A stretch of DNA of 64,000 nucleotides. Origin: Candidatus Gastranaerophilales bacterium. Its GTDB lineage: Bacteria; Cyanobacteriota; Vampirovibrionia; Gastranaerophilales; Gastranaerophilaceae. The position numbers and the translations under genes are program-made. Location of the stretch: the NCBI GenBank assembly GCA_944325635.1, contig CALVBD010000005.1, forward strand, positions 60,388-124,387, read 5' to 3'. A model generated the notes under the pieces. That model was not told the DNA's origin. It searched no databases and saw nothing but the letters and a program-made list of their open reading frames with translations. Positions 3,285-45,685 of the stretch are shown in pieces; position 1 is the stretch's first letter, and every line of letters begins with the position of its first letter.

Positions 3285-4769
3285 TTGTTGAGGATAACAG
3301 GCTTGAAAACTAACGTTAAACTAAAAATATTTATCCTTTTAGGTGCAGTACTCTTAAATGTGTGCAGTTCTGACGCAGCCGAAAAATATGCAGCCATTCA
3401 AAAAGGTGCTAAACTCAATATTTCAGACTGCATCCAGATTGCACTGAAAAACAGTCCGCTAATAAATAAGGCTTATTACAACTATCACGTTTCAAAAAAC
3501 GATGAAAAATTAGCCAGAACAGCATTCTTCCCGACAATAGGAATAGGAACAGGCTATACATATAACGATATGACGTCTGACAGGAGGTTTAATTACAATA
3601 ACAATAATTCCTATACTGCGCAGGCAACTCTGAGCCAGCTTATTTTTAATTTCGGCAAAACCAACGCCCAGATAAAGATGCAGAAATTTAATAAAATAGC
3701 TGCGATGTACAATTTTGATGATGTTGTATTGGACACGATTCTCGGCGTAAAAACATATTACTACAGCGTGCTTGCGGCAAAGGCAACCGTTGATATCAAC
3801 AGAGCCAACGTCCAGATTAATGAGAGGAATTACCAGAGGACAAAAGCCTATTTTGATCAGGGAATACGTTCTAAAATCGACCTTGTAAATGCAGAAGTAA
3901 ACCTCAGCGATTCAAAAGTTACGCTTGTAAATTCTATCAAGGCATACCAGAATGCCATAGTTCAATTGAATAATTCTATGTATGTTGCCTACACCCCTGA
4001 ATACGAAATTTCCGCAACGGAAACCTTCAACTTTCAGCAAAAAGAAATCCCTGTAAATTTGCAAAAAATTTCTGAAAAAAGAGATTTAAGCAAAACCCCT
4101 GCCCCTGTATCCGACGCAACCTTAACATCTAAAGTTGAGAAAATGGATGTTATTGAAACTTTCAAATTCAAGCCGTTTCCTTATACATTTGAGGAATGTG
4201 TAGAAAAAGCAAAAGAAAACCGTCCGGATTTGAAAGCATATAAAGCAACACTTGAAGCAATGAAACAGTCGTTACTTTACATCAAGCGCCAGTATTATCC
4301 TGAAATTTCTGCAAGTGCAGGCTATAATTACAGAAACCAGTATAATACGAATTCCTTCAATGTAGGTGTAAACCTTTCAAGTTCGGTGAACATTTTAAGC
4401 GAGAAATATCAGATTGATAACGGGAAATTACAGGTAAAACTTGCACAGAACGAAATTGATTTGCTTGAACAGAATATATATTTTGAAGTTCAAAATGCCT
4501 ACATAAATATGGTACAATTAGAAAAACAAATTCCGCTTCTGGCAGTTAAGGTAAAGCAGACATTTGAAAATTTTGAACTCGCTGACGGTCGTTACGCTGT
4601 TGGAATTGGCGACTATATCCAGTTGCAGGATGCAAGGGTAAACTATAACAATGCCCAGCAATCGTATGTTCAAACTGTTTACAACTACAATGTTGCAAGG
4701 GCAAACCTTGAAAAATTAATAGCATTACAGCAGGAAATTACTGTTAACGTAGAGGACAAAAGAGGATGA
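3285..4769 (+). CDS. TolC family outer membrane efflux protein
   Basis: 494 aa, signal/lipobox-like N-terminus (LLNVCSS), two long coiled-coil repeat halves typical of outer membrane factors; first gene of an adaptor/ABC efflux operon; start codon (TTG) uncertain. Confidence 0.8.
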   Translation: MLRITGLKTNVKLKIFILLGAVLLNVCSSDAAEKYAAIQKGAKLNISDCIQIALKNSPLINKAYYNYHVSKNDEKLARTAFFPTIGIGTGYTYNDMTSDRRFNYNNNNSYTAQATLSQLIFNFGKTNAQIKMQKFNKIAAMYNFDDVVLDTILGVKTYYYSVLAAKATVDINRANVQINERNYQRTKAYFDQGIRSKIDLVNAEVNLSDSKVTLVNSIKAYQNAIVQLNNSMYVAYTPEYEISATETFNFQQKEIPVNLQKISEKRDLSKTPAPVSDATLTSKVEKMDVIETFKFKPFPYTFEECVEKAKENRPDLKAYKATLEAMKQSLLYIKRQYYPEISASAGYNYRNQYNTNSFNVGVNLSSSVNILSEKYQIDNGKLQVKLAQNEIDLLEQNIYFEVQNAYINMVQLEKQIPLLAVKVKQTFENFELADGRYAVGIGDYIQLQDARVNYNNAQQSYVQTVYNYNVARANLEKLIALQQEITVNVEDKRG

Positions 4770-5929
4770 AACTAAAGAAAAAATATGTAATAGTTTGCAC
4801 GGTAATCATAGCACTTGTCGGGTCGAGTTTTGCATATAATGCATTTAAAAAACGTGTCAGATACCACACAAGAGCGCTTAAAAAATGCACAATAACGCAG
4901 GTGGTAGAAGCATCCGGCACAATTAACCCTGTAAACACCGTATCAGTCGGTTCAACCGTATCAGGGCTAATTCAGGATATCTATGTTGACTTTAATTCAC
5001 AGGTTAAAAAAGGTCAGATTTTAGCAAGAATTGATCCGAGAACATTTGAAGCAACAGTTCAGCAAAATCAGGCGCAGATTGCAAACGCGCAGGCAAATGT
5101 TGCAAGACTGAAAGCTGTTGTTGATTACGATAAAGTTATGTATGAACGTTACAAAAACCTTTATGCAAAAAATTTCGTTGCAAAAAGCGAACTTGATCAG
5201 TATAAAAGCACATATTATTCTGATTTAGCGCAAATGCAAGCAGCACAGGCACAGGTCAGACAGTATCAGGCAAACTTAAAAACAGCGCAAACAAATTTGG
5301 GCTACACTGAAATCATAGCGCCTGTAGACGGAACAATCGTATCAAGAGAAATAGACGTAGGGCAGCCGGTTGCAGCAAGCTTTCAGGCTCCGCAATTATT
5401 CACAATCGCGCAGGATTTGACAAAGATGCAGATTGAAGTAAGCGTCTCGGAAGCCGATATCGGAAAAGTTCAGGACGGGCAGGACGTAACCTATACACTT
5501 GACGGCTATCCTGACAGCCTCTTCCACGGAAAAGTTACTCAGGTAAGAATTTCCCCGACAACAGTTTCCAATGTCGTAACTTACACGGTAATTGTAAACG
5601 TCAATAATGACGACCTTAAACTTATTCCTGGTATGACGGCGAACGTTTCAATTATCACGGATAAGAGCGAGAATGTAATGTGCGCGCCGAGTATTGCATT
5701 GAAGTTTAACCCTAATACCGACGGAACACGCTACAAAACTCAGGGCATCTGGATTCTTGAAAAACGTAAACCGAAACGTATAGATATTGAAACCGGTGCT
5801 AGTGATGATACAAATACGGAAATTATCTCAAAAGACCTGAAAGAAGGCGACAGAGTAATTGTGGATTCCTCGCTCACAAGCAGTAAAGATAAAACAAATC
5901 AGCGCCGCAGAGGTCCTAGAATGTTCTAG
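4766..5929 (+). CDS. Efflux transporter periplasmic adaptor subunit (HlyD/MacA family)
   Basis: 387 aa with N-terminal membrane anchor, lipoyl-like/coiled-coil/beta-barrel layout (GQILARIDP, long Q/A-rich coiled coil, YTEIIAPVDGTIVSR); overlaps the TolC-family stop. Confidence 0.85.
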   Translation: MKLKKKYVIVCTVIIALVGSSFAYNAFKKRVRYHTRALKKCTITQVVEASGTINPVNTVSVGSTVSGLIQDIYVDFNSQVKKGQILARIDPRTFEATVQQNQAQIANAQANVARLKAVVDYDKVMYERYKNLYAKNFVAKSELDQYKSTYYSDLAQMQAAQAQVRQYQANLKTAQTNLGYTEIIAPVDGTIVSREIDVGQPVAASFQAPQLFTIAQDLTKMQIEVSVSEADIGKVQDGQDVTYTLDGYPDSLFHGKVTQVRISPTTVSNVVTYTVIVNVNNDDLKLIPGMTANVSIITDKSENVMCAPSIALKFNPNTDGTRYKTQGIWILEKRKPKRIDIETGASDDTNTEIISKDLKEGDRVIVDSSLTSSKDKTNQRRRGPRMF

Positions 5930-9035: not shown

Positions 9036-9073
9036 AATTCCGTAATCACATTGTCGTTGCACACGAAGGTTCT

Positions 9074-9097
9074 GCGATTCCGCATAGCGTGAAAAAC
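9074..9097. repeat. 24-nt repeat motif gcgattccgcatagcgtgaaaaac
   Basis: Near-identical copy (gcaattccgcatagcttgaaaaac) at 63937-63960, also next to hairpin repeats. Confidence 0.6.
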
Positions 9098-9100
9098 TAA

Positions 9101-9225
9101 GTAAAGTAGGTTGGGCTTTCAGCCCAACAACAGATTATAAATTTTCAAGAGCCGCAATCTTCATCGCGTTAAAATCAGGCGTGCGCCCGAACCAGATTTC
9201 CTGTGCTGCAATTGCCTGATATACA
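9101..9225 (-). pseudogene. 125-bp tandem duplicate: hairpin plus displaced copy of the last 29 codons and stop of aroE
   Basis: 9101-9224 aligns with 9226-9349 with 6 substitutions; translates as VYQAIAAQEIWFGRTPDFNAMKIAALENL* versus ...TPNFNAM... in the intact gene. Confidence 0.85.
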
Positions 9226-9259
9226 GTAAAGTAGGTTGGGCTTTCAGCCCAACAACAGA

Positions 9260-10099
9260 TTATAAATTTTCAAGAGCCGCAATCTTCATTGCGTTGAAAT
9301 TAGGCGTACGCCCGAACCAGATTTCCTGCGCGGCAATTGCCTGATATACCAGCATATCAAGACCGTTAATCGTTCTATAACCTAGTTTTTCCGCATTCTT
9401 TAAAAGAATTGTCTTTTTAGGGTTATAAATAACGTCGTACACTACAGCCCAATCAGGCAAGGTTTTCAAAACATTTTCTTCAACCGGCGTCATATCGGCA
9501 GAAACTCCCTGCATACCGATTGGCGTTGTATTCACTAAAATATCATATTTTGATAAATCCCGAACAGCATCAATCTGGTATGAAGTAAAGGTTATCTGCG
9601 GAAATTTTCTTCTCATATATGCCATATAATCCATGGCGTTTGGAATATTTCTTGTATAAACTCCGATTTCAGAAATTCCTAAATCAGACAAACCCAGAAC
9701 AGCCGCGCGGCTTGCTCCGCCTGTTCCTAGTATTGCAGCTTTTTTCCCTGCAAGATTTATGTCAGAAGGAATTGCCTTTTTAAATCCCGTTGCATCTGTA
9801 TTAAATGCACTGAAGGTTTTGTCTGAATTTATTTTTACAGTATTCACCGCTCCTGCAATATCCGCATACTTATCCACCTCCTGAACAAAAAGAGAAATCG
9901 GAAGTTTCAGAGGTATTGTGACATTAAATCCTGTGTAATTTTCACGTTTCAGAAATTTTACTCTATCCACAAGATCCTCCGGCGGAGTTTCCAGAATATC
10001 GTAAGTTGCATTAATCCCGAGACTTTCAAATCCTGCCTTATGAATGACCGCAGAAAGTGAATGTCCTAAAGGATACCCTATCAGTCCGAATTTATTCAT
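9260..10099 (-). CDS. aroE: Shikimate dehydrogenase
   Basis: MNKFGLIGYPLGHSLS N-terminus, GTGGASRAA NADP-binding motif, NTTPIGM motif. Start taken at the Met (10099) overlapping the topA stop; the ORF extends to 10132. Confidence 0.9.
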   Translation of the reverse strand: MNKFGLIGYPLGHSLSAVIHKAGFESLGINATYDILETPPEDLVDRVKFLKRENYTGFNVTIPLKLPISLFVQEVDKYADIAGAVNTVKINSDKTFSAFNTDATGFKKAIPSDINLAGKKAAILGTGGASRAAVLGLSDLGISEIGVYTRNIPNAMDYMAYMRRKFPQITFTSYQIDAVRDLSKYDILVNTTPIGMQGVSADMTPVEENVLKTLPDWAVVYDVIYNPKKTILLKNAEKLGYRTINGLDMLVYQAIAAQEIWFGRTPNFNAMKIAALENL

Positions 10100-12419
10100 C
10101 AGAATTTTCCTCCGGTTTTGGCTCTTCCACACGTTTATAACCGCATGAGCGGTTTGAACATTCTATTGTAGTTCCTTTTTTCAGAACTTTTTTCACCAAT
10201 AATGCGCCGCAGTCAGGGCATTCTTCACCTGTCGGTTCGTTCCAGAGTACAAAGTCGCAGTCAGGATACTTGTCGCAGCCAAAGAATACGGTTCCGCGCT
10301 TGGATTTTCTTTCAACTATTACACCTTTGCCGCATTTCGGGCATTTAACGCCTGTTGAGCGGCGGTAAGGTTTACGGAATTTGCAATCCTCATTAGTGCA
10401 TTCCATATACTTGCCGTAAGGACCTGTTTTAAATACCATATCAGAGCCGCATTTTTCACATTTTTCTTCGCATTTTTCAGCTTCGGAAGGTGTTTGAGAA
10501 GAAGCGCCTTCTGCCATTGCATTTAAAGACATTACGGTTTTGCATTCAGGATATCCTGAACACCCTAAGAACTGATTCCCCTGACGGCTTGTTCTGACAA
10601 GCATCGGTTTGCCGCAGTTCGGACACATAACATTTGTTTCAATTCGTACCCGCTCGCCGCTTTTCATCGCGTCATTTACAACCTCGATAAACGGTTCGTA
10701 GAAATCCTCGAGAACCTTATTCCATACAGCTTTTTTATCCGCAATCTGGTCTAATTTTGTTTCCATGCCGGCTGTAAATTTATAATCCATAACATCCGTA
10801 AACTGCGCCATAAGCTGTTTACAGACAGTTCTACCAAGAAGCGTCGGCGCCAGTGCTTTTTCCAGTTTCTCAACATAACCGCGCGTCTGAATTTTTGTAA
10901 TAATTGAGGCATAAGTTGACGGACGACCGATTCCGTACTCTTCCAGCGCCTTAACCAGAGTTGCTTCCGAGTATCTTGGCGGCGGCTGGGTGAAGTGCTG
11001 TTTCGGCGTAACCTTACGACAGGTCAGAATGTCATCTTTATGCAAATCAGGAATTTTTTCCTTTGGTGCATTATCTTCTTCATCATTCTCGTTATAAAGT
11101 TTCAGGAAACCGTCGAAAGTTACCTTGCTTGTGCTGGCTCTTAATGTATAGTCGCCTGCCGTTATTTCAACGGTTTTATTTGCAACGGTTGCATTTGTCA
11201 TCTGGGACGACATAAATTTATTCCAGATTAATTTATACAACCTGTACTGTTCATTAGAAAGATATTTTTTTATACTGTCAGGCGTCCGCTCAGGGTATGA
11301 TGGTCTGATGGCTTCGTGGGCGTCCTGAACATTTTGTTTGCCTTTGGCATAAATATTCGGCTTTTCAGGATAATATTTCTCGCCGTAATTTTTCAGGATA
11401 AAATCTTTTGCCATTGCCTGCGCGTCATCGGAAATTCTTGTACTGTCGGTTCTCATATAGGTAATCAAACCTACTGCACCGTTTTCAAGTTCAATACCTT
11501 CATATAATTTCTGCGCAATCTGCATTGTTTTTTGAACGCCGTAACCTAGTTTTGATGAGGCTTCTCTCTGAAGCGTAGAAGTAATAAAAGGAGCTGTCGG
11601 CTTACGTTTTGTTTCCCTGTTTGTAATCTTTTCAACCTTGTATTCCGTTGATTTATCCGAGAGAAATTCTACAATCTTCTGCGCTTCTTCTTCGTTTGGA
11701 ATTTCTATTTTTTTATCTTTGTATTTTGAAAGTTCTGCCTCGAAAACTCCGCCTTCTTTTTCCAATTCCGTATGAATAGACCAGTATTCAACAGGTACGA
11801 ATGCTTCAATTTCCTCTTCTCTTTCGCAAATCATTCTAAGGGCGACAGATTGAACACGTCCTGCAGAGAGGTGATAATTCCCGAGCTGTTTCCACAATAC
11901 AGGGCTTAATTTGTAGCCTACGAGTTTGTCAAGAATTTGTCTTGTCTGCTGGGCTTTTACCCTGTCCATATCAATTGCGCGCGGATGTTCAACCGCGTAT
12001 TTTACTGCCTTCGGCGTAATCTCGTTAAATTCAATTCTGAAAACCTTATCATCCGGCACATTCAGAACCTGTCTGACATGCCAGGCAATAGCCTCTCCCT
12101 CGCGGTCGGGGTCGGAAGCCAGAAATATTTTATCGCTTTTTTTTGATAATTCATTCAATTTGGTAACGACTTTTTTCTTCTCGGGGATAACAACAAAAGA
12201 TGGCTGGAAACCGTTATTAACATCAAACCCGAGAACATTCTGCGGCAAATCTCTGATGTGACCGAAACTCGCTTCTATCGTATAGCTGTCCCCTAAAATT
12301 TTTCTGATAGTTTTGGATTTTGCAGGAGACTCTACTATTACAAGAGCTTTCTCTTTTTTGGATTTAGTTTTTGACGCCTGCGCGCCCTCTGTTTTTTCTG
12401 CTGCTGCCGCTTTTGCCAT
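10092..12419 (-). CDS. topA: DNA topoisomerase I
   Basis: 775 aa; Toprim start LVIVESPAKSKTI, DPDREGEAIAWH, type IA core, and four C-terminal Cys4 zinc-ribbon repeats. Confidence 0.95.
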   Translation of the reverse strand: MAKAAAAEKTEGAQASKTKSKKEKALVIVESPAKSKTIRKILGDSYTIEASFGHIRDLPQNVLGFDVNNGFQPSFVVIPEKKKVVTKLNELSKKSDKIFLASDPDREGEAIAWHVRQVLNVPDDKVFRIEFNEITPKAVKYAVEHPRAIDMDRVKAQQTRQILDKLVGYKLSPVLWKQLGNYHLSAGRVQSVALRMICEREEEIEAFVPVEYWSIHTELEKEGGVFEAELSKYKDKKIEIPNEEEAQKIVEFLSDKSTEYKVEKITNRETKRKPTAPFITSTLQREASSKLGYGVQKTMQIAQKLYEGIELENGAVGLITYMRTDSTRISDDAQAMAKDFILKNYGEKYYPEKPNIYAKGKQNVQDAHEAIRPSYPERTPDSIKKYLSNEQYRLYKLIWNKFMSSQMTNATVANKTVEITAGDYTLRASTSKVTFDGFLKLYNENDEEDNAPKEKIPDLHKDDILTCRKVTPKQHFTQPPPRYSEATLVKALEEYGIGRPSTYASIITKIQTRGYVEKLEKALAPTLLGRTVCKQLMAQFTDVMDYKFTAGMETKLDQIADKKAVWNKVLEDFYEPFIEVVNDAMKSGERVRIETNVMCPNCGKPMLVRTSRQGNQFLGCSGYPECKTVMSLNAMAEGASSQTPSEAEKCEEKCEKCGSDMVFKTGPYGKYMECTNEDCKFRKPYRRSTGVKCPKCGKGVIVERKSKRGTVFFGCDKYPDCDFVLWNEPTGEECPDCGALLVKKVLKKGTTIECSNRSCGYKRVEEPKPEENSDE

Positions 12420-18352: not shown

Positions 18353-19339
18353 ATGAATGAGATAACATCAAGACACTTAATAAATATAGTAAAATACAGA
18401 ATAGTGTGGCTCTGTATTTCCGCAATATTGTTATTGCCGGGAGTTATTGCGCTAGTTTATTCAACTATCCATAACGAAAACCATATTCCGCTCAAAGTCG
18501 GCATTGACTATACCGGCGGGACTATTCTCCAGTACGGAGTTAACAAAAACGTCACTAACGCAGATATGAGCAAAACCCGTACGGATTTGGAAAAAATAGG
18601 GATTGAAAATCCTTCAATCCAAATTCTTCACGCAAATGCAGAATCTTCAAAAAATTCTGATTTGAAAAGTATTATTTCAATAAAAACTAAATTCATCGGA
18701 GAAGATAAAGATACAGTAAACAAAATCACTGAAACTTTATCAAAGGATTACACAAATCCTGATTTGATTTCAGTAAGTTCTGTGGGACCGACTTTAGGAA
18801 GAGAATTGTTTAAAAATTCACTCCTTGCATTAAGTTTAGCATTTTTAGGAATTATTGCGTATCTTTCTTTCAGATTTAAATTTGATTATGCGCTTGCCGC
18901 AATTCTCGGTATTGCACACGACGTACTTTTTGTAGTTGGTATATTTTCTCTTCTCGGGCTTTTATACAACGTTCAAATCGACGGATTATTTATCACTGCA
19001 ATCTTGACGGTTGTCGGGTTCTCCGTCCACGATACAATCGTTGTATTCGATAGAATTAGAGAAAACCTGCGTTATTACTCAAAGAAAATGTCTTTCGGCG
19101 AAATTGTCAATGCGTCAGTTAACCAGACTTTAGCAAGAAGTATCAACACATCACTCACAACAATAATCACACTTGCAGCATTGTATTTCTTCGGCGGTGT
19201 AACGACAAAAGACTTTGTACTTGCTATGTTAATCGGTATTGCAATCGGAACATATTCAAGTATATTCTTCTGCTCGGTACTCGTAGATATCTGGGAAGAC
19301 CACAAAAACAACAAAAAATCTGCAGCAACTGCGGCATAA
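18353..19339 (+). CDS. secF: Protein translocase subunit SecF
   Basis: 328 aa; GIDYTGGT motif and SecD/F transmembrane domain (HDTIVVFDRIREN). Confidence 0.95.
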   Translation: MNEITSRHLINIVKYRIVWLCISAILLLPGVIALVYSTIHNENHIPLKVGIDYTGGTILQYGVNKNVTNADMSKTRTDLEKIGIENPSIQILHANAESSKNSDLKSIISIKTKFIGEDKDTVNKITETLSKDYTNPDLISVSSVGPTLGRELFKNSLLALSLAFLGIIAYLSFRFKFDYALAAILGIAHDVLFVVGIFSLLGLLYNVQIDGLFITAILTVVGFSVHDTIVVFDRIRENLRYYSKKMSFGEIVNASVNQTLARSINTSLTTIITLAALYFFGGVTTKDFVLAMLIGIAIGTYSSIFFCSVLVDIWEDHKNNKKSAATAA

Positions 19340-19413: not shown

Positions 19414-19961
19414 TTAAGGGAATAGACCAGTGCGCAAAAGGCACAAGTCTATTCTTGTATATGGGGCTTGTGCATCCCCTGCCCATGCACTGACATTCTT
19501 TTAGTTTTAATATCTGATACGTTCACTTTTTCTTTTTTATTGCTATGAAAAAAGAAAAAGTGAACCGAAAAAGAAAAACACGCAAAGAAACAGTGGCGCT
19601 ACGCGCCACAAAACCAAATGAAAGTAGTTGAAGGCTTTGCCTTCAACCATTAGTGGTATGCTATAGTGCTAACGCACACGCACACCTTACCGACCTACGG
19701 TCGGTCTAAGGAAGGTGCGGAAACCTTTTTCTACCCTCTTTAACAATTTTAGTTTTAACTATACGACTACTTTCGTATCTTCTGCTGACTCGTTTTTTGG
19801 GTCGCGTGTTTTCTTTTCTTTCGTCTATTTCTTTTCTTTTGCTTCAAGGACTCCGTTTTGAGTTGACTAAATGTCAAGTCAAAATGGAGGGCAAAAGAAA
19901 AGAAATAGACTTAATAAGGAAATCTGATAGAACCTTTTGCGCACTAATCTGTTTTCCTTAA
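19414..19961. repeat. Large ORF-free nested-helix element, copy A (candidate structured RNA or MITE-like element)
   Basis: Outer inverted repeat 19414-19441/19933-19961. Perfect 18-bp hairpin 19521-19538/19548-19565. Helix 19566-19583 with 19804-19823. Perfect 20-bp helix 19823-19842/19891-19910. GC hairpins at 19593-19609, 19627-19647 and 19690-19704. Module order is shared with 33249-33768. Confidence 0.7.
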
Positions 19962-20034
19962 GAATATTAAATCCCCATCATCCGGCACTGAGTGCCACAT
20001 TCTCCCGCCCGGGGGAGAAGGTAGAAAACTTTTT

Positions 20035-20973
20035 TTATTTCAGCACCGCTTTTATCGCAGATATCATTCCCTTTTCTGAGGCAATATTTTTTCCTGCAAT
20101 ATCAAACGCGGTTCCGTGACCTGGTGAGGTCCTTATTATATCAAGCCCGATTGTCATATTAACGGTTTCATCACCTGCAACAGTTTTTATCGGTATCAGC
20201 CCCTGATCATGATAATTCGCGATATAGCAGTCATAAGGACATTTTTCTCTATTAAAAAATGCCTTGCCGGCTTTTACAAAAAGAGTGTCCGCAGGTAAAG
20301 GGTCTGTTATATTAATACATTTTTCGCGAAGTTCTTTGACTGCCGGATTTAAAATCTCAATTTCTTCTCTGCCCAAAATTCCATCCTCTCCAGAATGCGG
20401 GTTAAATCCGCACAGTGCAAATTTTGGCTCGTCAATTCCAAAATGCTTCTGGAAAAATTCTTGCAAATTCAAAACTTTTTCTTCAACTATTTCCTTTGTG
20501 AGATTAATTTCTTTTAATGCGCAATGGCGGGTCAATAAAAGTACCCTAAAATCTCTTGCAACAAATAACATCTCTGCAAGCTGTCCGTTATGAGCGAGAA
20601 AATTCTGTAAAATTTCAGTCTGTCCGTTAAAAATGTGCCCAGCAAGGTGAAGCGCATTTTTGGCAACAGGTGCTGTTACAATAGCTTTCGGTTTCATTTC
20701 GCAAACTTTTTTTAATGATTGGTATGAAAACTCTCCTGCGGCCTTTGTAACCTTTCCTGCTTCAATTTCACCATCATACGGAACCTCAGCTATTTCATAA
20801 TCCCGTTTCAATTCACCGTAGAAGTCAAGAATTCTTTTATTTGAAACAAGAACGATTTTATCCTCGGGCAGGTCGAGCCTGTTTAAAGCTTTGATTGTAA
20901 TCTCAGCCCCAATCCCGTTCGGGTCACCCGTTGTAATCGCAATTTTACTTTTATAATTACTCATGTTTTTCAA
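20035..20973 (-). CDS. pdxA: 4-hydroxythreonine-4-phosphate dehydrogenase family protein (PdxA/PdxA2)
   Basis: 312 aa; ITTGDPNGIG N-terminus, C-terminal SPGHGTAFDIAGKNIAS; coupled to the DUF1537 kinase gene, as in PdxA2-type loci. Confidence 0.9.
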   Translation of the reverse strand: MKNMSNYKSKIAITTGDPNGIGAEITIKALNRLDLPEDKIVLVSNKRILDFYGELKRDYEIAEVPYDGEIEAGKVTKAAGEFSYQSLKKVCEMKPKAIVTAPVAKNALHLAGHIFNGQTEILQNFLAHNGQLAEMLFVARDFRVLLLTRHCALKEINLTKEIVEEKVLNLQEFFQKHFGIDEPKFALCGFNPHSGEDGILGREEIEILNPAVKELREKCINITDPLPADTLFVKAGKAFFNREKCPYDCYIANYHDQGLIPIKTVAGDETVNMTIGLDIIRTSPGHGTAFDIAGKNIASEKGMISAIKAVLK

Positions 20974-23730: not shown

Positions 23731-24273
23731 ATGGAATTAAAAGGCTCGAAGACGGAAAAGAATCTTCTTGAGGCTTTTGCAGGAGAATCTCAGGCAAGAA
23801 ATAAATACACCTACTACGCTTCACAAGCAAAAAAAGAAGGGTTTGTTCAAATAAGCAAAATATTTGAAGAAACCGCAAATAACGAAAAAGAACACGCAAA
23901 AATCTGGTTTAAATATTTGCATGAAGGAAACAAAATTCCCGAAACAATTAAAAACCTCGAAGATGCGGCAAACGGTGAAAATTACGAATGGACCGATATG
24001 TACGCACGTTTTGCACAAGAAGCAAAAGAAGAAGGATTCGATACTCTCGCAATTCTCTTTGAAATGGTAGGCAAAATCGAAAAAGAACATGAAGAGCGCT
24101 ACAGAAAACTGCTCGAAAATGTTAAAAATAACACAGTATTTGAAAAGCCATCCGCCGTTGTATGGGAATGTGCAAACTGCGGACATACTTTCGAAGGAGA
24201 AAAGGCTCCGGAATTATGCCCTGTGTGTAAACACCCGAAAGCTTACTTCTTTATGAAAGCAAAAAATTACTAA
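23731..24273 (+). CDS. Rubrerythrin
   Basis: 180 aa; ferritin-like diiron domain ([32 protein letters not shown]) plus C-terminal rubredoxin-like CANCG...CPVC. Confidence 0.95.
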
Positions 24274-24327: not shown

Positions 24328-24894
24328 ATGGCAAAAATAAAGGAGTTGGTTGTGACCGAATTTAAGGGAAGTGATACAGAACAGAATTTAGCCAAAGCTT
24401 TCGTTGATGAAGCTTCAGGTTATTTTAAATATTCACTTTATGCTGTTCTTGCAAAATATGAAGGACAAGATTACATCAGTAAAATATTTGAAGATATTGC
24501 TCAAAATGAAAAAGAACACGCTAAAATCTGGTTCAAGTGGCTTAATGACGGAAAATTTCCGAAAACCTTGAAGAACCTTAAAGATGCGATTGAACTTGAA
24601 AATAATGCTGTTACTGCCGAATACCCTGAATTCATCAACAAAGCAAAAGAAGAAGGTTTTGAACATCTTGCCGGACTTTTTGAAAAAATTGCCGAAATAG
24701 AAAAAAATCATCTTGAAAAATTCAAAAAATTAAAACAATCGCTTGAAAATGAACTAAATATCCCGGCTGACACCACACCGATGTTATGGGAATGTTCGGC
24801 TTGCGGAGCTGTTATTGAACAAGATACCCGCCCGGATTACTGTCCTCTTTGCGCGCATGAAGATACTTTCTTTTTTAAAAAGAATCCCCGTTAA
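24328..24894 (+). CDS. Rubrerythrin family protein
   Basis: 188 aa; EKEHAKIWF and EIEKNHLEKF diiron motifs, C-terminal CSACG...CPLC. Confidence 0.9.
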   Translation: MAKIKELVVTEFKGSDTEQNLAKAFVDEASGYFKYSLYAVLAKYEGQDYISKIFEDIAQNEKEHAKIWFKWLNDGKFPKTLKNLKDAIELENNAVTAEYPEFINKAKEEGFEHLAGLFEKIAEIEKNHLEKFKKLKQSLENELNIPADTTPMLWECSACGAVIEQDTRPDYCPLCAHEDTFFFKKNPR

Positions 24895-30296: not shown

Positions 30297-30313
30297 GCGA
30301 CGTAATATAACAT

Positions 30314-30436
30314 TTTACCCCTCAACCCTTGAGGGCGAGTGGGAATTTTAATGCCTCCATTTGTAAGGGAGGTGGCGCGAATGCGCCGGAGGGTTTTCTT
30401 TAGCGTCATTGCTGGCTACGACCCGCAATCGCAGCA
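30314..30436. repeat. Mosaic of small palindromic repeats
   Basis: Three parts: ttttacccctcaa-ccc-ttgaggg hairpin (30319-30335); module X (30353-30398), the reverse complement of 33420-33463; and hairpin tttagcgtcattgctggctacgacccgcaatcgcagc (30399-30436), related to 63819-63856. Confidence 0.75.
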
Positions 30437-30546
30437 CTGTAAAATACCACAATTTCAGATTAATCAATTCTCTAATCTTGCTATTTCCATATAAAAAAAT
30501 TTATAGTAAGATATTTTTTATAAGAAGTAAGATGAGGGGATATTAT

Positions 30547-33126: not shown

Positions 33127-33921
33127 CATAAAATATGTTATCGGAAGATTTTTTACCCCTCTCCCTATGGGAGAGGGAGGAATTTCTTAGCGAACATTAG
33201 TGAGCATAGAAATTCGGGTGAGGGGTAATTTTATATTCTTTCAGGTATGTTCATTTCTTTTCTTTTTTAGCCGGAAAAAGAAAAGAAACGAACCAAAGAA
33301 AAGAAAAATCGGCAAAAAATTCCAGCGTCGCTACGCGCCGCGAAATAAAATGGAAGTAGTTGAAGGCAGAGCCTTCAACCTTATATGCTCGCTATCGCGG
33401 CAAAGCCGCACGCTCGCCTGAAAACCCTCCGGCGCTTGGCGCCACCTCCCTTACAAGGGAGGCTTTTACTTTACCCCCTTTGTAAAGGGGGGTAGGGGGG
33501 ATTTATTTAGACCAACCTGTGGTCGGTTGCCGAACGTGTACGAAGTGCGATAGGGAGGCTCAAAGGTTAAATGCGTCAGCATTTAACGACATCCATTCTG
33601 TCTTGCGCTGCGAAGCAGCGCTGTAAATAATGCGTGTTTTTCTTTCTTAGCCGATATTCTTTCTTTGCTTGTTTGCCGCCGTTAAACGGGCACGCATACG
33701 CATAGCGTATGCTTATGCCCTCTGGCGGCAATACGCTTTGCATCGCAACAAAAAGAAAGAATATCCGGTGCAGGGTTTGGGGCTGCATAAGCCCCAAATA
33801 TAAATATTGTAGCTATATAATCCTCACCCGAATTTATAAATTCGCATTTGCTTTTTAACAAAATATCCCCTCGCCCCTTACGGGCGAGGGGATATTCCTT
33901 GTTCCGATAACATATTTTATG
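33127..33921. repeat. Large ORF-free nested-helix element, copy B (candidate structured RNA or MITE-like element)
   Basis: Perfect 20-bp outer inverted repeat 33127-33146/33902-33921; 14-bp helix 33210-33223/33822-33835; 19-bp hairpin 33249-33267/33275-33293. The core 33249-33768 is colinear with 19521-19910. Carries an inserted module X (33420-33463) and other small hairpins. Confidence 0.7.
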
Positions 33922-34058
33922 TATTCAAGTTCTACTTTAGATTATAAAAAAGACAAATCCTCAAAATTAAGTATTCACTTTTGTAAAGAAAATTTCTATA
34001 ATGTTTACATAATTTCATGTTTATTATTACATGTGTTTAAAATAGGACGGGTTAAACA

Positions 34059-34705: not shown

Positions 34706-35462
34706 TTACAACCTTATAGGGTAATCATCAGGAATTGTAAAATTATTCTGCATTATCAAGACAGTACAAACATCTGCTCTGCTCCAATCTGCCAGAAGTG
34801 GATGGGCGGATTCTGATATACAGCCCTGAATTAACTCCTCCTTTGAGTAACGTGACGTATCAATTATTGAAGTCCAAAAAGCCCCCCTTGAACGATCCAA
34901 GCGAAATGAAAAAACATCTCTGCCATCAATTTTCGAAGTTTTATTCGGCTTCAAAAATACATAAAACTGCCCGCGGGTTCCACCTCGCGCATAAAAGCAT
35001 AGTCCTGTTCCATTAACCAATTTCACACATTTATTCATATTTCCATAATTTGAGGAAACACCGCCATTAAATCCATTGGAAACAAAATATGGAGAATTTT
35101 TTGGATATTCTTCCGTAACCTTGATATATTTTTTAAAATATTTATTAAAAATAGCTTCATTTTGTTCAAAAGAGTTGTCATTTCCGTCATTGTTGAATTC
35201 ACCGGAAACCGTAAACTCAAAACCGACGCCATATTCAACTTCAGCCATTTTTACAGCATTTGAAATCAATGAATAACAAGTTTTTAACTGATTTTCAACA
35301 ACACTTTTCCGGTAATTTTGAATCAACCCCGGCAAAGTCATAGCGGCAACAATACCAATAATACCAAGAGTTATTAATACTTCGGCAAGAGTAAATGCAA
35401 ATTTTAGCTTTAAACTAGTCTGCCCCCCCCCCCGTAAACCCAGTCATAGCAATGGTTTTCAT
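34706..35462 (-). CDS. Type IV pilin-like protein, frame interrupted at a poly-G(11) tract after codon 9
   Basis: SD aaggagg N5 ATG at 35462, then MKTIAMTGFT and G11 (C11 on the + strand, 35423-35433). The downstream frame encodes ..KLKFAFTLAEVLITLGIIGIVAAMTLPGLIQNY plus a pilin-like body (DGRDVFSFRL). 10 or 13 G would join the frames. Confidence 0.8.
35423..35433. repeat. Homopolymeric C11/G11 tract inside the pilin-like gene leader
   Basis: Counted directly: 11 consecutive C on the + strand. Confidence 0.95.
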
Positions 35463-35538
35463 GTTTTCCTCCTTGTATATAGAAATTAATAATTCATATA
35501 ATTATTATATCATACAAAAGCAGCATGAACAAGATATG

Positions 35539-40569: not shown

Positions 40570-41142
40570 ATGAAGGATCTAAAAGGAACAAAAACCGAAC
40601 AGAATTTGATTAACGCATTTGCAGGAGAATCTCAAGCCAGAAACCGTTATACAATATTTTCCAAAATAGCAAAAAAAGAAGGCTATGAACAAATTTCTCA
40701 GATTTTTCTTGATACGGCAGAAAACGAAAGAGAACATGCAAAACTTTTCTATAAATATTTAGGCAATATTGAAGGTCATGTTGATGCAACTTACCCGTTT
40801 GAACTCGGGACAACGGAAGAAAATCTTGAAAGCGGTGTAAAAGGGGAACGAGATGAGTGGGAATTCATTTACAGAAAAGGGGAAGATGACGCAAATGAAG
40901 AAGGCTTTGATGAAATAGCAGAAACCTTCCGCCTCGTGAGAACAGTAGAACAACACCATGCGGAACGCTATGCTGTACTGCTTAAAAATTTAAAAGAAAA
41001 AACTGTATTTAATAAACCTGAGCCTCAATACTGGGTTTGCAGAAAATGCGGATTTATAGCATATTCTGACACTGCGCCGAAAGAGTGCCCATTATGTCAT
41101 CATCCGCAAGGATATTTTGAAATAAAATCAGAAAAATTTTAA
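40570..41142 (+). CDS. Rubrerythrin
   Basis: 190 aa; [32 protein letters not shown] diiron motifs and C-terminal CRKCG...CPLC. Confidence 0.95.
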   Translation: MKDLKGTKTEQNLINAFAGESQARNRYTIFSKIAKKEGYEQISQIFLDTAENEREHAKLFYKYLGNIEGHVDATYPFELGTTEENLESGVKGERDEWEFIYRKGEDDANEEGFDEIAETFRLVRTVEQHHAERYAVLLKNLKEKTVFNKPEPQYWVCRKCGFIAYSDTAPKECPLCHHPQGYFEIKSEKF

Positions 41143-41180: not shown

Positions 41181-41224
41181 ACTATTTGATTTTAAGCTGT
41201 TTTAGTCGTATAATAAACAGGAGT

Positions 41225-44200
41225 ATGGGCAAAAAAACAATTGCAACTATTTCAATAATTTCACTAATAGCTTTATACGGGCTTTATTACCGGGGAATTC
41301 CCGCCGCAATTAATAAACCTTATTTTGAAAACTTTATTGAACGTCAAATACAAAAAAACAGCGGGTTAAAAATAGATTTTGTTAACCCTGAATTTAAAAT
41401 GGGATGGCTTCCCGCAGTATGGCTGAAAGCTGATGAAATTTCCGTCACAAATGATGATAAATCAAAACCGTTAAAACTTGAAAATCCTGCCCTGAAACTT
41501 CAGTTGTTTCCGCTTCTTTTAAAACACGCAGAAGTAAGCGTATTCAATGCAAATAACACAACTGCAAAACTTTCCATTGATAAACGCGGACAAATATTTC
41601 TCGGGCAATACCCTCTCAATTTTGATAAAAAATCAAAAATAACTTTAAACAAAATAAAGATTAATCTGAACAAATACTATATTACGCTCAACGATAACGT
41701 TTTGGGAAAAACGGTTATTCTTGACGGTAAAACATTCAAACTTGAAGATTTTGAAAAAGACAAACGTGCGAAATTTTCTACAAAATCAAGTCTTATTGTT
41801 GACGGCAAACCATCTATAATCAATACTTCCGTCGATTTGCGGTTTCCTATTAATAAGATTAATGAAGACCAGCTTCTACTCAACGCAGATATAGAAAACC
41901 TTGATTTATCCCTTTTCAAAATTTACGTAAAATATTTTTCAAAAAACAGATACACTGATTTAAAAGGAATTTTAAATTTCCACGCAAAAACAGATGTAAC
42001 AAAAGAAAAACACAAAAATATCACGGCAGATTTAACCCTTGATAATTTCGGTTTAATGAAAAAAGATACGGCGGGTTCAAGCTTCTGCAACGGACGGCTT
42101 GAAATAAAAACAACCCTTAACACTTTAAAAAACGGTATTCATCTGGAAAACCTGACGCTTAAAGCACCGAAAGTTGACCTTGCTGCAAGCGGCAATATCA
42201 CAGGTTTAAATAAAAAATTTCCATACCTTGACATACAAACAACAATTAACCCGTCAAGATCGGAAAACATTATTCCGCTTCTTCCGGGAGAAGAAAATCT
42301 TCTGCCTGATTTCAACTTCTATTTATTAAAAAAACATATATTCTATAGCAACATTATGGGGCATATTAATATAAAAGGGATTGCCAATAATCCTGAGTTA
42401 TTCGGCAACGTCCTGATAACGGACGGATATCTGATAAAAAGAATTCCTGATACGACAGAAGGTGCGACAGTTAAACTTTCTATGGAAAAACAAATGATGC
42501 ACCTTGATGCAAATGTCGAAACCGCCCCGAATGAAGGAGTTGATGTCACAGGAGATTTCAAACTTTTCACAAACAGACGCTCTGATATACATATAAAAAG
42601 TACAAAAAACATAAGTCTTTTAAAGGCATATAACGTTGTAATGCCGCTGCATAACATCATCAAATTTGAAATCGGACCTGTTCCGATGATGAAGGTTACA
42701 GGTACCGGAAATATTGATTTAAGAATATCAGGGACAAAAATAGAACCTCATGCCTGGGGCGAAATGAATTTTAAAGACACCAATGCTTCATTTAACGATA
42801 TCCATAACCTTTCTGTCACGGGAATTAACGCAAAACTAACATTCGACGACAGACTTGCAACATTTAAATCATCAAAAGCTTTTATTCTGGGACAGCCTGT
42901 CACGATAGAAGGTACAAGTTCACTTTCAGGCGATATGGATTTTACGGCAAAATCTAAAGGACTGCCAACAGAACATTTATTAAAGGTAATAAACACCTCG
43001 CCTGTACTTGCAGAATTGCAGGAGGTTGTTGAACCTATAAAAACCATCTCCGGAAAGGCTGATTTGCTTTTAAATTTAACAGGACACATGAAACCTGGCG
43101 TTGAACCTGTTTTTAACGAAAACCTGTTTGCAAAAGGTACAATAGATTTTCATAACAACAAAGGTGAATTAAAAGATATTCCTGCAGAAATCTCACAACT
43201 ATCCGGAACGGTAAATTTCGTAAATGAGGACGCTGATTTTGATATGGAAACTCTTGTTGAAAAATCAAAAGTTAAATTCAAAGGCACCGTAAAAAACGAA
43301 AACATTAATTTAACGGCATATTCAAACAAGTTCAACGCCGGAGATGCTCTCAGAATTTCCTCCAGAATGTACTCATATATTCCATACGTAAAAGATTCAG
43401 AGTCGATAAATTCATCGTTTACGGCATTTTATCAGGCTAAAGCCGACAAGATTATTCATTATGACAAAATTATAATGAACGGGAAAATCTACAACAATTT
43501 CGGCTCCGGAAAACCAATCCTTGTCGGAAACGGGGAATTTAATCTTAAAAATAACCACCTGACGGTTTCCCCGCTAAAAGGTACATATAAAAGCAATCCG
43601 TACAACTTAAAAGTCGATGTCACCGGATTTTTAACGGATAACTTCAAAATAAACGGTTATGCCTCAATGAAAAACTTTAACCTTGCGGCGTTGAATGAAC
43701 TCGGACCGATAGAAGAAATTTTTCCTGAATACAAAGACCAATTGAAACAGTTTGGAAGATATGAAGGGAAAACTAATATTGCAGCCAGAATAAACAATAA
43801 TAATCTGCGAGTTTTCTCTCAACTGAATGATGTAAGTTTTGTATATCTTCCGAAACACTTGAGAATAAGAATAAAAGACGGTCATTACCTTTTAAATAAC
43901 GATAGGCTTAATCTAAGCAGAATAAGCGGTTTTGTCGGCAGAATGCCGGTTTTTGTAAACGGCAAAATCACTAATGTATTTAAAAACCCTGATGCGGATT
44001 TATATATAAACGCAAAACCTACACAGGAATTCTTTGACCAGTTCTTTAACAATAAAGCGGTGTATCCGATAAAACTTAAAGGGGATGTCAATTGCACGGC
44101 AGAACTCAACGGAACTCAGGATAAATTAAGTACAAAAGTTGATTTAAAACTTGATGAAAGCTCCAGTCTTTACTATATGGGCGCCACAATCGGGGATATG

Positions 44201-45685
44201 GTAAGCCCTGTAGAGATAAAAGCGGATGCCGTTCTCTCGCCGAAAAGCATCAAAATCAATAACTTTAAATACGACAAAATTATCACATCATTAAATAACA
44301 AAGAAAACCCTAACACCCAGCTTACGGCTAGCGGTTATGTTGAACAGCTCGGAGAAAATTACTTCAAATTTAAAAATCTCCGCATAACAACCCACAACCC
44401 GACGGACGCTAAAATTTTCAACATAATATTCAAAAAACCGCTTATGAAACAGGGTGTATTTACATCCGATATGATTATTAACGGAACATCTAAAGCCCCG
44501 AAAATATTAGGAAAACTTGATGTCACAAGCATTGATATGCCGTTTTTTGATGCGACAATCAAAGATATACATACAGATTTCAAAAAAGATATAGTAACAA
44601 TAAATGCACGCGGAAGCATTCTCAATAATGCAATAACTCTGGATGCGATTTTAAAAAACTCCTTCCCTGACCCGATTGTATTTAAGGATATCAAACTCCA
44701 CTTTATAGATTTGAATTTAAATAAAATCACCGGCTCGCTGCAGGATTACGACGCTGATATTTATAAACAGCAGATAGCAACACCATACCAGCTTCAGCCG
44801 ATTGACCCATCAATAATCCGCATAGAAAATTCGGAAGTTACTGCAGATAACATTCTATTAAAAGCACTTTCCGCCACAAACTTTAAAGCTAATCTCAAAA
44901 TGGGCGCTGATTCTGTCATAAATGTGACGAATTACGGCTTTGATATGGCGCAGGGGAAAGTGACGGGAGATTTAAAATACAACCTTAAGACAAGCGATTT
45001 TAAAATAAATTCGCACATAACAGATGCAAATGCTCAAATAATCTCGGAGTCACTGTTTGATTTAAAAGGCCAGCTATACGGAACAACAACAGGAGACTTA
45101 ACTCTCTACTGCAACGGGAAAACACAGGATTTATGCCTGAATACACTCGGCGGCAAAGGAAATTTTGAAGTTGCGCACGGCAGAATGCCGAAATTAGGGT
45201 CACTGGAATACCTTCTTAAAGCTGCAAACCTTGCAAAAAGCGGTCTTACAGGACTTTCTATCAACAGTATTATTGATATAATTACACCGCTGAAAACCGG
45301 TGAATTTGAAAGTATCAGCGGCAGTTATGAAATTAAAGACGGCATTGCATACGAAGTTAATGTATATTCAAAAGGAAAAGACCTCAACCTATACCTCACT
45401 GGCGCTTATAACGTCACAAATTCCAACGCTGATATGAAGGTATACGGAACCCTTTCTAACAACATTACAAACGTTCTAGGACGCCTTAAAAATGCTTCTT
45501 TGAATACGCTTTTAAATATGATACCATTATTAAACAAAAACGAAATTTCACCTGAACTTGAAGCAGAGTTAAAGAAAATTCCGAATTACGAAGTTTACAA
45601 TAACATATTCAGAATATTTGCCGTTGATATCGACGGTGACATCAATGGCATAAATTACGTAAAAAGCTTCAAGTGGGTAAAATAA
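41225..45685 (+). CDS. Giant envelope protein, AsmA/TamB-like
   Basis: About 1490 aa; a single N-terminal TM (IATISIISLIALYGLYY), then a long beta-rich Asn/Lys-rich body. Assignment rests on size, layout and diderm context only. Start uncertain (41186 TTG or 41225 ATG). Confidence 0.5.
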   Translation: MGKKTIATISIISLIALYGLYYRGIPAAINKPYFENFIERQIQKNSGLKIDFVNPEFKMGWLPAVWLKADEISVTNDDKSKPLKLENPALKLQLFPLLLKHAEVSVFNANNTTAKLSIDKRGQIFLGQYPLNFDKKSKITLNKIKINLNKYYITLNDNVLGKTVILDGKTFKLEDFEKDKRAKFSTKSSLIVDGKPSIINTSVDLRFPINKINEDQLLLNADIENLDLSLFKIYVKYFSKNRYTDLKGILNFHAKTDVTKEKHKNITADLTLDNFGLMKKDTAGSSFCNGRLEIKTTLNTLKNGIHLENLTLKAPKVDLAASGNITGLNKKFPYLDIQTTINPSRSENIIPLLPGEENLLPDFNFYLLKKHIFYSNIMGHINIKGIANNPELFGNVLITDGYLIKRIPDTTEGATVKLSMEKQMMHLDANVETAPNEGVDVTGDFKLFTNRRSDIHIKSTKNISLLKAYNVVMPLHNIIKFEIGPVPMMKVTGTGNIDLRISGTKIEPHAWGEMNFKDTNASFNDIHNLSVTGINAKLTFDDRLATFKSSKAFILGQPVTIEGTSSLSGDMDFTAKSKGLPTEHLLKVINTSPVLAELQEVVEPIKTISGKADLLLNLTGHMKPGVEPVFNENLFAKGTIDFHNNKGELKDIPAEISQLSGTVNFVNEDADFDMETLVEKSKVKFKGTVKNENINLTAYSNKFNAGDALRISSRMYSYIPYVKDSESINSSFTAFYQAKADKIIHYDKIIMNGKIYNNFGSGKPILVGNGEFNLKNNHLTVSPLKGTYKSNPYNLKVDVTGFLTDNFKINGYASMKNFNLAALNELGPIEEIFPEYKDQLKQFGRYEGKTNIAARINNNNLRVFSQLNDVSFVYLPKHLRIRIKDGHYLLNNDRLNLSRISGFVGRMPVFVNGKITNVFKNPDADLYINAKPTQEFFDQFFNNKAVYPIKLKGDVNCTAELNGTQDKLSTKVDLKLDESSSLYYMGATIGDMVSPVEIKADAVLSPKSIKINNFKYDKIITSLNNKENPNTQLTASGYVEQLGENYFKFKNLRITTHNPTDAKIFNIIFKKPLMKQGVFTSDMIINGTSKAPKILGKLDVTSIDMPFFDATIKDIHTDFKKDIVTINARGSILNNAITLDAILKNSFPDPIVFKDIKLHFIDLNLNKITGSLQDYDADIYKQQIATPYQLQPIDPSIIRIENSEVTADNILLKALSATNFKANLKMGADSVINVTNYGFDMAQGKVTGDLKYNLKTSDFKINSHITDANAQIISESLFDLKGQLYGTTTGDLTLYCNGKTQDLCLNTLGGKGNFEVAHGRMPKLGSLEYLLKAANLAKSGLTGLSINSIIDIITPLKTGEFESISGSYEIKDGIAYEVNVYSKGKDLNLYLTGAYNVTNSNADMKVYGTLSNNITNVLGRLKNASLNTLLNMIPLLNKNEISPELEAELKKIPNYEVYNNIFRIFAVDIDGDINGINYVKSFKWVK

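Follow-up and report, generated by a model that had tools for sequence, protein, structure and literature searches.

A probable multi-copy foldback DNA repeat with paired intrastrand-triplex motifs in a Candidatus Gastranaerophilales genome

A structured noncoding region between secF and pdxA

A 64,000-nucleotide (nt) stretch of a Candidatus Gastranaerophilales (Melainabacteria) genome (contig CALVBD010000005.1, positions 60,388 to 124,387; referred to here as the window) contains a 548-nt region, 19414-19961, between the convergent ends of secF (18353-19339, plus strand) and pdxA (20035-20973, minus strand). An initial annotation, made from the sequence alone, had described this region, here designated copy A, as lacking credible open reading frames (ORFs) and as a dense array of nested helices, and had leaned toward a novel structured RNA, with a MITE (miniature inverted-repeat transposable element) as the fallback. 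The longest ORF within the region was no longer than 54 amino acids (aa), and most of the predicted helices were found.

Copy A begins and ends with a terminal hairpin unit of the kind called type ii below. The left unit (19414-19457, plus strand) starts with TTAAGGG and is a palindromic hairpin with arms at 19420-19433 and 19441-19454 and the loop GCAAAAG, and the right unit (19915-19961, plus strand) is a degenerate hairpin with the flipped loop CTTTTGC that ends with CCTTAA. The outer inverted repeat that had been noted is formed by 19421-19441 and 19933-19953 (21 nt, 86% complementary). Next to the left unit, the small hairpin GGGGCTTGTGCATCCCC (19463-19479, plus strand) is the inverse of a module usual at the right end of family members (compare the right ends of loci L023, L034, and L038). 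The left arm (19521-19656, plus strand) scored 137.3 bits with R1, a covariance model of the left arm, and consists of hairpin 1, in which a pyrimidine arm (19521-19538) pairs perfectly over 18 bp with a purine arm (19548-19565), a third, purine tract (GAAAAAGAAAAA, 19567-19578) that mirrors the purine arm exactly, and two further hairpins, hairpin 2 at 19593-19609 and hairpin 3 at 19627-19647. The variable center (19657-19742, plus strand) contains hairpins, including one at 19690-19704, as well as a relic of the variant-1 right half; the hairpin at 19690-19704 and hairpins 2 and 3 are the three GC-rich hairpins of the earlier description. The right arm (19743-19910, minus strand) is an inverted, diverged homologue of the left arm (R1 minus-strand match, 40.8 bits; E value, 4e-6). 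Its third, pyrimidine tract (19808-19821; mirror 14/14) is followed by a linker (19822-19827) and by a hairpin with arms at 19823-19842 and 19891-19910, a perfect 20-bp helix that is part of a 27-nt arm pair. An extra hairpin (19853-19887) is inserted in the loop of this helix, nested as had been described.

Two of the proposed long-range pairings were weaker. The helix between 19566-19583 and 19804-19823 has ∼9 bp (ACACGC/GCGTGT plus an A/T run), is imperfect after them, and is 77% complementary over 22 nt, and although 19620-19626 and 19768-19774 are complementary, a 7-mer match by itself is at the level of chance. The counterpart of the latter pairing in other copies is AATGGAWGTAG/CTACATCCATT. 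The minimum free energy (MFE) of the plus strand was −210.5 kcal/mol compared to a shuffle mean of −122.2 (z = −13.3), and that of the minus strand was −206.9 kcal/mol (z = −11.1 versus shuffles).

A second copy in the window and the anatomy of the family

The initial annotation had reported the same modules in the same order at 33249-33768. A second copy (copy B) does exist there, and its left arm (33249-33388, plus strand; R1 score, 152.5 bits) is ∼83% identical to that of copy A over the core, but copies A and B carry different variants of the right half, and the reported span was too narrow; with its terminal repeats, the full element extends from 33127 to 33921. Its left terminal inverted repeat, CATAAAATATGTTATCGG (33127-33144, plus strand), lies directly 3′ of the stop codon of an M16 peptidase gene, and its right terminal inverted repeat is at 33904-33921 (minus strand); both are type i. 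A G/C-rich three-block module, CCCTCTCCC-TAT-GGGAGAGGG-(38-nt hairpin)-GGGTGAGGGG, occupies 33157-33225 (plus strand) and is mirrored by a second such module at 33820-33890 (minus strand). The left arm has hairpin 1 at 33249-33293, a third purine tract at 33295-33308, and hairpins 2 and 3 further on. Small palindromic modules make up the variable center (33389-33556, plus strand). The right arm (33557-33768, minus strand), again an inverted homologue of the left arm (R1 minus-strand match at 33557-33701, 55.6 bits; E value, 3.6e-9), contains a third pyrimidine tract (33636-33648) and a hairpin whose pyrimidine arm (33657-33667) and purine arm (33749-33768) are separated by a loop with an 81-nt insertion. 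It is followed by the hairpin GGGGCTGCATAAGCCCC (33779-33795, plus strand).

A covariance model and a search of relatives had been suggested as a check. A family was found, and only a few sister species carry copies. Its anatomy was derived from 25 copies, which range from 0.43 to 0.8 kb. Every complete copy has paired terminal inverted repeats, either type i (CATAAAATATGTTATCGG) or type ii, a palindromic 47-nt hairpin, TAAGGGAATAGACTAGTGC-GCAAAAG-GCACTAGTCTATTCCCTTA, that is present at both ends with the loop flipped. In the left arm, hairpin 1 consists of GTTCA plus a pyrimidine tract, a loop, and a purine tract plus TGAAC, after which come the second purine tract, hairpin 2 (GCGNCGC), AAATGGAAGTA, and hairpin 3 (GTTGAAGGC-NNN-GCCTTCAAC). 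Hairpin 3 is preceded by GTAG (GTAG-TTGAAGGC...), only a lead toward repetitive extragenic palindromes (REP) and bacterial interspersed mosaic elements (BIMEs), whose 20- to 40-nt GC-rich palindromes have a conserved GTAG head and flank a RAYT gene. The right arm has the inverse arrangement, and the arms are ∼140 nt each. The left-arm covariance model matched right arms on the opposite strand with 40.8 to 82.2 bits, which indicates that the element is a long, diverged inverted repeat (foldback).

The center, which is built of small palindromic modules, differs among copies, and indels between copies would disrupt any reading frame. Left-arm subtypes, right-arm subtypes, and terminal-repeat types combine freely, in a mosaic; for example, L048 has the interior of copy B with a type-ii right end. 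In L012, the right arm has been replaced by a second, inverted left arm of subtype 2 (3489-3630, plus strand, and 3802-3938, minus strand), so that the result is a head-to-head pair of left arms. L029 has two elements within 8 kb, at 2070 (plus strand) and 7435 (minus strand), and the loop of hairpin 1 at 2061-2069 is flipped (AATCGCAAT versus ATTGCGATT in other copies), which is a small-scale inversion across the hairpin stem.

Extra hairpins typically sit in the loops of other hairpins, as at 19853-19887 in copy A and in the 81-nt insert of copy B. In cyanobacteria, Elhai and colleagues in 2008 reportedly found that hairpins of MITE-like elements harbor nested small dispersed repeats. By description only, the two cases are alike in that palindromic units seem to have been inserted in the hairpin loops of larger repeats, lengthening the hairpins, and the host studied here belongs to a sister lineage of Cyanobacteria. 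However, the units have other sequences, and this host is nonphotosynthetic. Small palindromic modules also occur outside the element. They form a cluster in the spacer at 30310-30440, 5′ of the M16 peptidase gene, where a solo module (30349-30398, minus strand) is 90 to 93% identical to a module in the center of copy B. Internal modules are thus themselves dispersed repeats. A further short repeat, CGTCATTGCTGGCTACGACCCGCAATCG..., is dispersed among several spacers (30404-30450, 63824-63870, 63884-63930, and 9040-9098) and also adjoins the element in L057 and L071.

Paired three-block modules in the arms

In every left arm, the purine tract after hairpin 1 is an exact mirror of the purine arm of the hairpin, with the mirror axis within a 6-nt spacer, TGAACC, and in every right arm, the pyrimidine tract before the hairpin is an exact mirror of the pyrimidine arm. 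Both the Watson-Crick and the mirror relations were perfect in all seven sequence classes (11/11 to 14/14 positions; mirror P = 0.003 to 0.02 per class, in shuffles that kept composition and register). Indels and positions of G distinguish the classes and have changed concordantly in all three tracts. The possibility that the third tract is an alternative Watson-Crick partner, that is, a direct repeat, was rejected because the asymmetric classes matched as mirrors at 14/14 and 12/12 positions but as direct repeats at only 11 and 9. Within 556 kb of related loci, such modules were found only in this family, apart from two unrelated mirror matches without a pyrimidine arm.

The blocks are ordered Y-R-R on one strand and Y-Y-R on the other (Y, pyrimidine; R, purine), as in the published definition (PMC4666352) of Hoyne and Maher's (2000) potential intrastrand triplex (PIT) elements, which were surveyed by Holder et al. 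in 2015 (PMC4666352). In that scheme, the order Y-R-reverse-Hoogsteen is the purine motif, and its complement, Hoogsteen-Y-R, is the pyrimidine motif (PMC4666352). As judged from sequence, the arms bear the hallmark of a motif for an intrastrand triplex or H-DNA. A spacer of 6 to 8 nt separates the third tract from the purine arm, and 5 to 6 bases of it are paired to the hairpin foot, so that the full 19- to 20-bp hairpin and the triplex may be alternative conformations. The hairpin loop is 4 to 10 nt, and up to 81 nt where modules are inserted; the limits used previously were 1 to 6 nt in ITxF and 0 to 10 nt in Hoyne et al. (PMC4666352).

The closest precedent for these modules is the BoxC (TMECO) element, which has the consensus CCCTCNCCC N3-6 GGGNGAGGG N3 GGGNGAGGG and whose loci are more rearranged between Escherichia coli strains (PMC4666352). 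As in that element, each strand has three consecutive blocks (pyrimidine, purine, and mirror purine, with Hoogsteen-pyrimidine, pyrimidine, and purine on the complement), and the units are multi-copy, intergenic, and tied to rearrangement of loci between close strains. The arm modules differ in that they are A/T rich (A·A-T or T·A-T, with 2 to 3 G/C triplets), their tracts of 11 to 15 nt are at the top of the range searched in PMC4666352, their spacers are 6 to 8 nt, and the first loop holds up to 81 nt of inserted hairpins. Furthermore, they are paired as the arms of a 0.43- to 0.8-kb foldback, whereas TMECO is a unit of ∼40 nt, and the triplex in TMECO was examined by CD, UV melting, or NMR measurements or by chemical footprinting (PMC4666352), while the one proposed here is predicted from sequence. 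Modules that fit the G/C-rich TMECO consensus are those at 33157-33225 (plus strand) and 33820-33890 (minus strand) in copy B and one at ∼19975-20030 (minus strand) beside copy A; they deviate from it in a longer second loop with a small hairpin inserted. The last of these modules lies outside copy A and is also present at the solo-hairpin locus L053.

Instability at orthologous sites

Relatives of the pdxA-secF site, collected via PdxA homologues, fell into four states. L073 (PdxA 99% identical to that of the window) has the element in the orientation of the window; L071 (95%) has the element type of the window, flipped; L057, L074, and L075 (95 to 96%) have a flipped element with a different left and right subtype; and L053 to L056 (96%) have one 47-nt terminal hairpin only, of the type of the left terminal unit of copy A, in a 190-nt spacer. 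In BLAST comparisons, the flanks and the interior of flipped alleles aligned in opposite senses, and the sequence absent from L053 covered window positions ∼19455-19932. The presence/absence polymorphism among strains that had been proposed for examination was found as a difference in occupancy, but the "empty" allele still holds one terminal hairpin. Because the terminal unit is palindromic, paired units provide both inverted repeats, for inversion, and direct repeats, for deletion to a solo unit. Neither duplication of a 47-bp target nor simple site-specific integration into a solo hairpin would place the loops of the two units in opposite orientation, as observed, and both were ruled out. 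In a more distant lineage (87%; L059 to L062), the pdxA-secF spacer is filled by DUF6613 genes.

At the M16 peptidase site, L063 and L064 (95% lineage) have kept the terminal repeats and outer modules but have lost the core; its place is taken by a hybrid hairpin that combines the left pyrimidine arm with the right purine arm. Comparison of L063 (5081-5500) with the window (33127-34058) showed different genes downstream, a 77-aa ORF and a GT41 glycosyltransferase in the former versus a 214-aa ORF in the latter, and the repeat thus marks a synteny breakpoint at this site. Lineages with 86 to 87% M16 identity have short, element-free spacers that could not be aligned. In L069, a lineage without the element, a lone hairpin-1-like hairpin (CTTCATTTCTTTCTTT...AAAGAGTTAGAAATGAAG) followed by a T run (5085-5150) is located after the M16 peptidase gene, in the expected position of the terminator.

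Inversion was seen elsewhere as well. The flanks of L021 and L044 are 96 to 97% identical, and the interior between the terminal repeats is in the opposite sense; L038 is inverted relative to L024 and L034. In total, both orientations were found between strains or species at three of about seven orthologous sites, in different samples. The identity of orthologous pairs (0.72 to 0.99) was compared to the mean for paralogous copies (0.82 to 0.90); orthologous copies are no more alike than paralogous ones, which indicates that copies exchange sequence (concerted evolution).

Distribution and gene context

GTDB genomes, one per species, were scanned with the conserved hairpin-3 pattern as the query. 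The scan returned 46 loci, of which ∼24 were true copies and the remainder chance matches. All of the true copies were in three species-representative metagenome-assembled genomes (MAGs), with at least 10, 9, and 5 copies; two of these MAGs are labeled Candidatus Gastranaerophilales and one "uncultured bacterium." A scan of the JGI metagenome collection for the core added one further copy. The core was not found in viral contigs, plasmids and phages gave no BLAST match, and more distant Gastranaerophilales loci (PdxA 87 to 89% or M16 86 to 87% identical to the window) had no copy. These near-empty wider searches indicate that the family, although multi-copy, is confined to a few sister species; it was seen in no more than about four genomes, all close relatives within the Gastranaerophilales. 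Scans for the terminal repeats and an internal block yielded only one lone 18-mer, an exact type-i terminal sequence beside a small hairpin in an IMG/VR viral contig (L072, 3158-3175), with no partner repeat and no core. The exact SecF protein of the window is also encoded on contigs of the gut metagenome ENA ERZ24773362 (BRZ_HD).

Copies are found in tandem, divergent, and convergent spacers, with no clear preference for gene context. Many are just downstream of genes, and their neighbors are housekeeping genes. Many metagenome contigs end inside copies (the ends of L058, L071, L073, and L074, as well as L005, L007, L035, and L043), which fits with assemblies breaking where a repeat is multi-copy or varies in orientation.

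A composite foldback repeat as the favored interpretation

We consider it probable that 19414-19961 is one copy of a lineage-specific, multi-copy, noncoding composite foldback DNA repeat with paired intrastrand-triplex motifs. The repeat resembles MITEs or BIMEs. Inversion, deletion to a shell or solo hairpin, exchange of modules, synteny breaks, and contigs that end in copies point to unstable DNA rather than to an RNA gene. The inverted terminal units and arms let the segment invert, and the palindromic terminal units and arm hairpins double as direct repeats, which permit deletion to a solo hairpin or a coreless shell. By analogy with the reports on BoxC/TMECO triplex motifs in E. coli, this instability may be driven by hairpins, cruciforms, and triplexes that form when the DNA is single stranded or supercoiled. 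Spread to new sites would need an enzyme acting in trans, and effects on neighboring genes, such as termination or protection of mRNA 3′ ends, would be incidental.

Several observations weigh against this interpretation. No autonomous element with matching terminal repeats was found in the 556 kb of related loci, viral contigs, plasmids, or phages, and the copy ends show no unambiguous target-site duplication. TA flanks all type-ii ends, where it may belong to the repeat, and 10 of 19 type-i ends, and it is present at both ends in two of the seven complete type-i copies. No allele that lacks the element completely has alignable flanks, and transposition is thus not demonstrated. Given that no transposase or recombinase was found in the window or in the loci around copies and no clear duplication at the copy ends, and that a hairpin remains in the "empty" allele, transposition is suggested by analogy only. 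Most insertions are shared between species, several of them between the MAGs, so that recent mobility is not demonstrated either. Finally, the three tracts of the mirror modules are strictly conserved together; this suggests selection, and a repeat that is purely selfish or neutral would not account for it.

If the favored interpretation is correct, the dense structure that attracted attention is DNA palindromy and not a new ribozyme-sized RNA, which removes a false lead. The full, flipped, module-swapped, coreless-shell, and solo-hairpin states form a natural series between housekeeping genes and show large palindromic repeats reshaping small gut Melainabacteria genomes and breaking metagenome assemblies. 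Comparison of the arms, in which the third tract tracks the hairpin through seven variants, supports intrastrand triplex motifs with unusual clarity. What such motifs do in bacteria has been unsettled since their description in 2000, and the arms supply concrete sequences for biophysical and genetic tests.

Alternative interpretations

One alternative is that the element is an inverton, in which a site-specific recombinase acting in trans flips the segment at the terminal repeats and alters transcription into the neighboring genes via a promoter, terminator, or antisense effect. Like the invertible promoter segments of gut bacteria, the element is a segment of a few hundred bases that lies between inverted repeats in every copy, occurs either way round at one locus when close strains are compared, and has terminal repeats that are common to many loci, as would be expected for a regulon of sites under one invertase. 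Some copies also lie between divergent genes. However, no invertase or recombinase gene was found in the 64-kb window, where a Pfam scan of most ORFs of at least 120 aa identified housekeeping genes only and no transposase or recombinase. The element has no conserved promoter-like site inside, and a promoter and terminator scan found no promoter conserved between the two window copies. Copy A, which lies between convergent gene ends, has no obvious target for a promoter switch. Two unrelated types of terminal repeat surround one core, the two orientations come from comparison between samples and were never found within one sample, and long inverted repeats invert by general recombination anyway. 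It seems unlikely that the element is an inverton.

Another possibility, which we regard as equally doubtful, is that the paired three-block modules are selected triple helices that would form the working ends of the element. In one variant of this proposal, folded single-stranded DNA or H-DNA ends would be recognized by a recombinase or transposase, which would invert the element, excise it, and spread it; in the other, the modules would be a bacterial counterpart of ENE/MALAT1 that guards the 3′ ends of transcripts entering from either side. If either is true, the matching changes of all three tracts in the seven sequence classes would be the first comparative evidence for a long (12 to 14 triplets) functional triplex in a bacterial mobile repeat.

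The element might instead be a classical MITE that arose from an insertion sequence (IS) by internal deletion, is moved in trans by the transposase of its parent, and inserts at TA. This was the fallback of the initial annotation, which pointed to the TTAAGG-ended repeats, and it came closer to the truth than a structured RNA, but no clean empty site, clear target-site duplication, or autonomous partner was found. Members of the family lack ORFs, end in terminal inverted repeats, and are dispersed between genes in many copies, with TA at all type-ii and about half of the type-i ends, and sites occupied in some relatives are unoccupied in others. It shares with bacterial MITEs and mosaic repeats (Correia, ERIC, RUP, BOX, BIME/REP, and REPIN) a noncoding, modular, dispersed intergenic nature, inverted termini, long stem-loops on either strand, and a location beside housekeeping genes. 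It differs from them in its nested palindromic shells, in the two alternative, unrelated terminal-repeat types around one core, and in a size (0.43 to 0.8 kb) that is much larger than that of most of them and well above the usual <200 bp of MITEs (PMC4666352). Moreover, no parent IS was found in the 556 kb of related DNA, viral contigs, or plasmids, no clean target-site duplication was seen, and the unoccupied allele keeps a solo terminal hairpin. No RAYT gene was identified either, with no search aimed at one. The termini with which the ends of a cognate IS would be compared are CATAAAATATGTTATCGG and TAAGGGAATAGAC. A search for transposases by all-against-all comparison of ORFs in the loci around copies found only a family of pilin-like paralogues. 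A classical MITE seems about as unlikely as the preceding proposals.

About equally unlikely is a structured RNA element that acts in transcripts, either as a free-standing noncoding RNA or, more plausibly, as a two-way mRNA 3′-end protector or terminator. In this proposal, the far arm of the transcribed strand, which reads Hoogsteen-pyrimidine/pyrimidine/purine, could form a U·A-U/C+·G-C triple helix of 12 to 14 triples, as in ENE/MALAT1. Such a structure would resemble the RNA triple-helix elements (ENE of PAN and MALAT1 and transposon RNAs; PMC7583470 and PMC12501189) in the order of the U-rich Hoogsteen, U-rich Watson-Crick, and A-rich blocks and in a number of possible triples comparable to that of MALAT1. 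Those elements, however, come from eukaryotes or viruses, and their A-rich strand is the 3′ tail of the RNA, whereas the pattern described here is symmetric on both DNA strands and was read from DNA. Pyrimidine-motif intrastrand triplexes can form in RNA (PMC4666352), where triplexes of this motif are typically found in H-type pseudoknots (PMC7583470), and in subtypes 1 and 2, the hairpin 1 loop has its complement (ATTGCG/CGCAAT) in the tail that follows the third tract. In copy B, which is subtype 3, the loop/tail pair is GCCG/CGGC, and in other subtype-3 copies it is GCC/GGC only. The fold is also very stable, expansions are placed in hairpin loops as in large RNAs, hairpin 1 covaries, many copies are directly 3′ of genes, and the solo hairpin-1-like hairpin in L069 is terminator-like.

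Nevertheless, the tests made at the RNA level argue against this proposal. As the initial annotation had supposed, no known RNA family was recognized; there were no Rfam matches at the gathering thresholds in the whole 64 kb, relaxed thresholds gave only sub-threshold matches, mostly to microRNA and small RNA models, and no tRNA or transfer-messenger RNA was found in the window. In 14 complete copies, the MFE was approximately equal on the two strands, which had 203 and 181 G·U pairs. Among isolated stem mismatches, G·T (22) was about as frequent as A·C (19), and selection on one RNA strand should favor G·T. In the RNAalifold analysis, covariation was detected in 4 of 28 pairs, three in hairpin 1 and one, from a single sequence, in hairpin 2; hairpin 3 was invariant in the alignment. 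Whichever strand is considered, one arm is a module of the purine motif, and purine-motif triplexes are reported not to form in RNA (PMC4666352; Semerad and Maher 1994, listed in PMC7583470). With one purine-type arm on each strand, a DNA structure (single-stranded DNA or H-DNA) explains both arms more simply than RNA does. The extremely narrow taxonomic range, the presence of copies in divergent promoter regions, and the persistence of core-deleted and solo derivatives also weigh against an RNA. These results do not support a novel structured RNA gene. The ordered, nested complementarity on which that suggestion was based is real, but both strands fold alike with no G·U bias, and the element inverts and decays by deletion. 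Retrons, group II introns, ωRNA/HEARO, and bridge RNAs were dropped from consideration because there was no adjacent protein gene and no Rfam match. A search of the literature for repeats in Gastranaerophilales found nothing relevant.

Other repeats and genes in the window

Two further repeats were noted. Two tandem 125-nt units that are 95% identical (9100-9349) overlap the start of a shikimate dehydrogenase ORF (9260-10132, minus strand). The other repeat, 191 nt long and 75% identical between 35283-35473 and 55592-55782, is located at the 5′ ends of two minus-strand ORFs, one of which (34706-35341) matches DUF6613, while the other (54982-55659) had no Pfam match. There was also no Pfam match for a 1,499-aa ORF at 41186-45685 or for the ORFs at 49096-50193, 56759-57577, and 57649-59439. 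Three rubrerythrin paralogues are encoded at 23731-24273, 24328-24894, and 40570-41142; two of them are adjacent to each other, downstream of a Fur-family gene.

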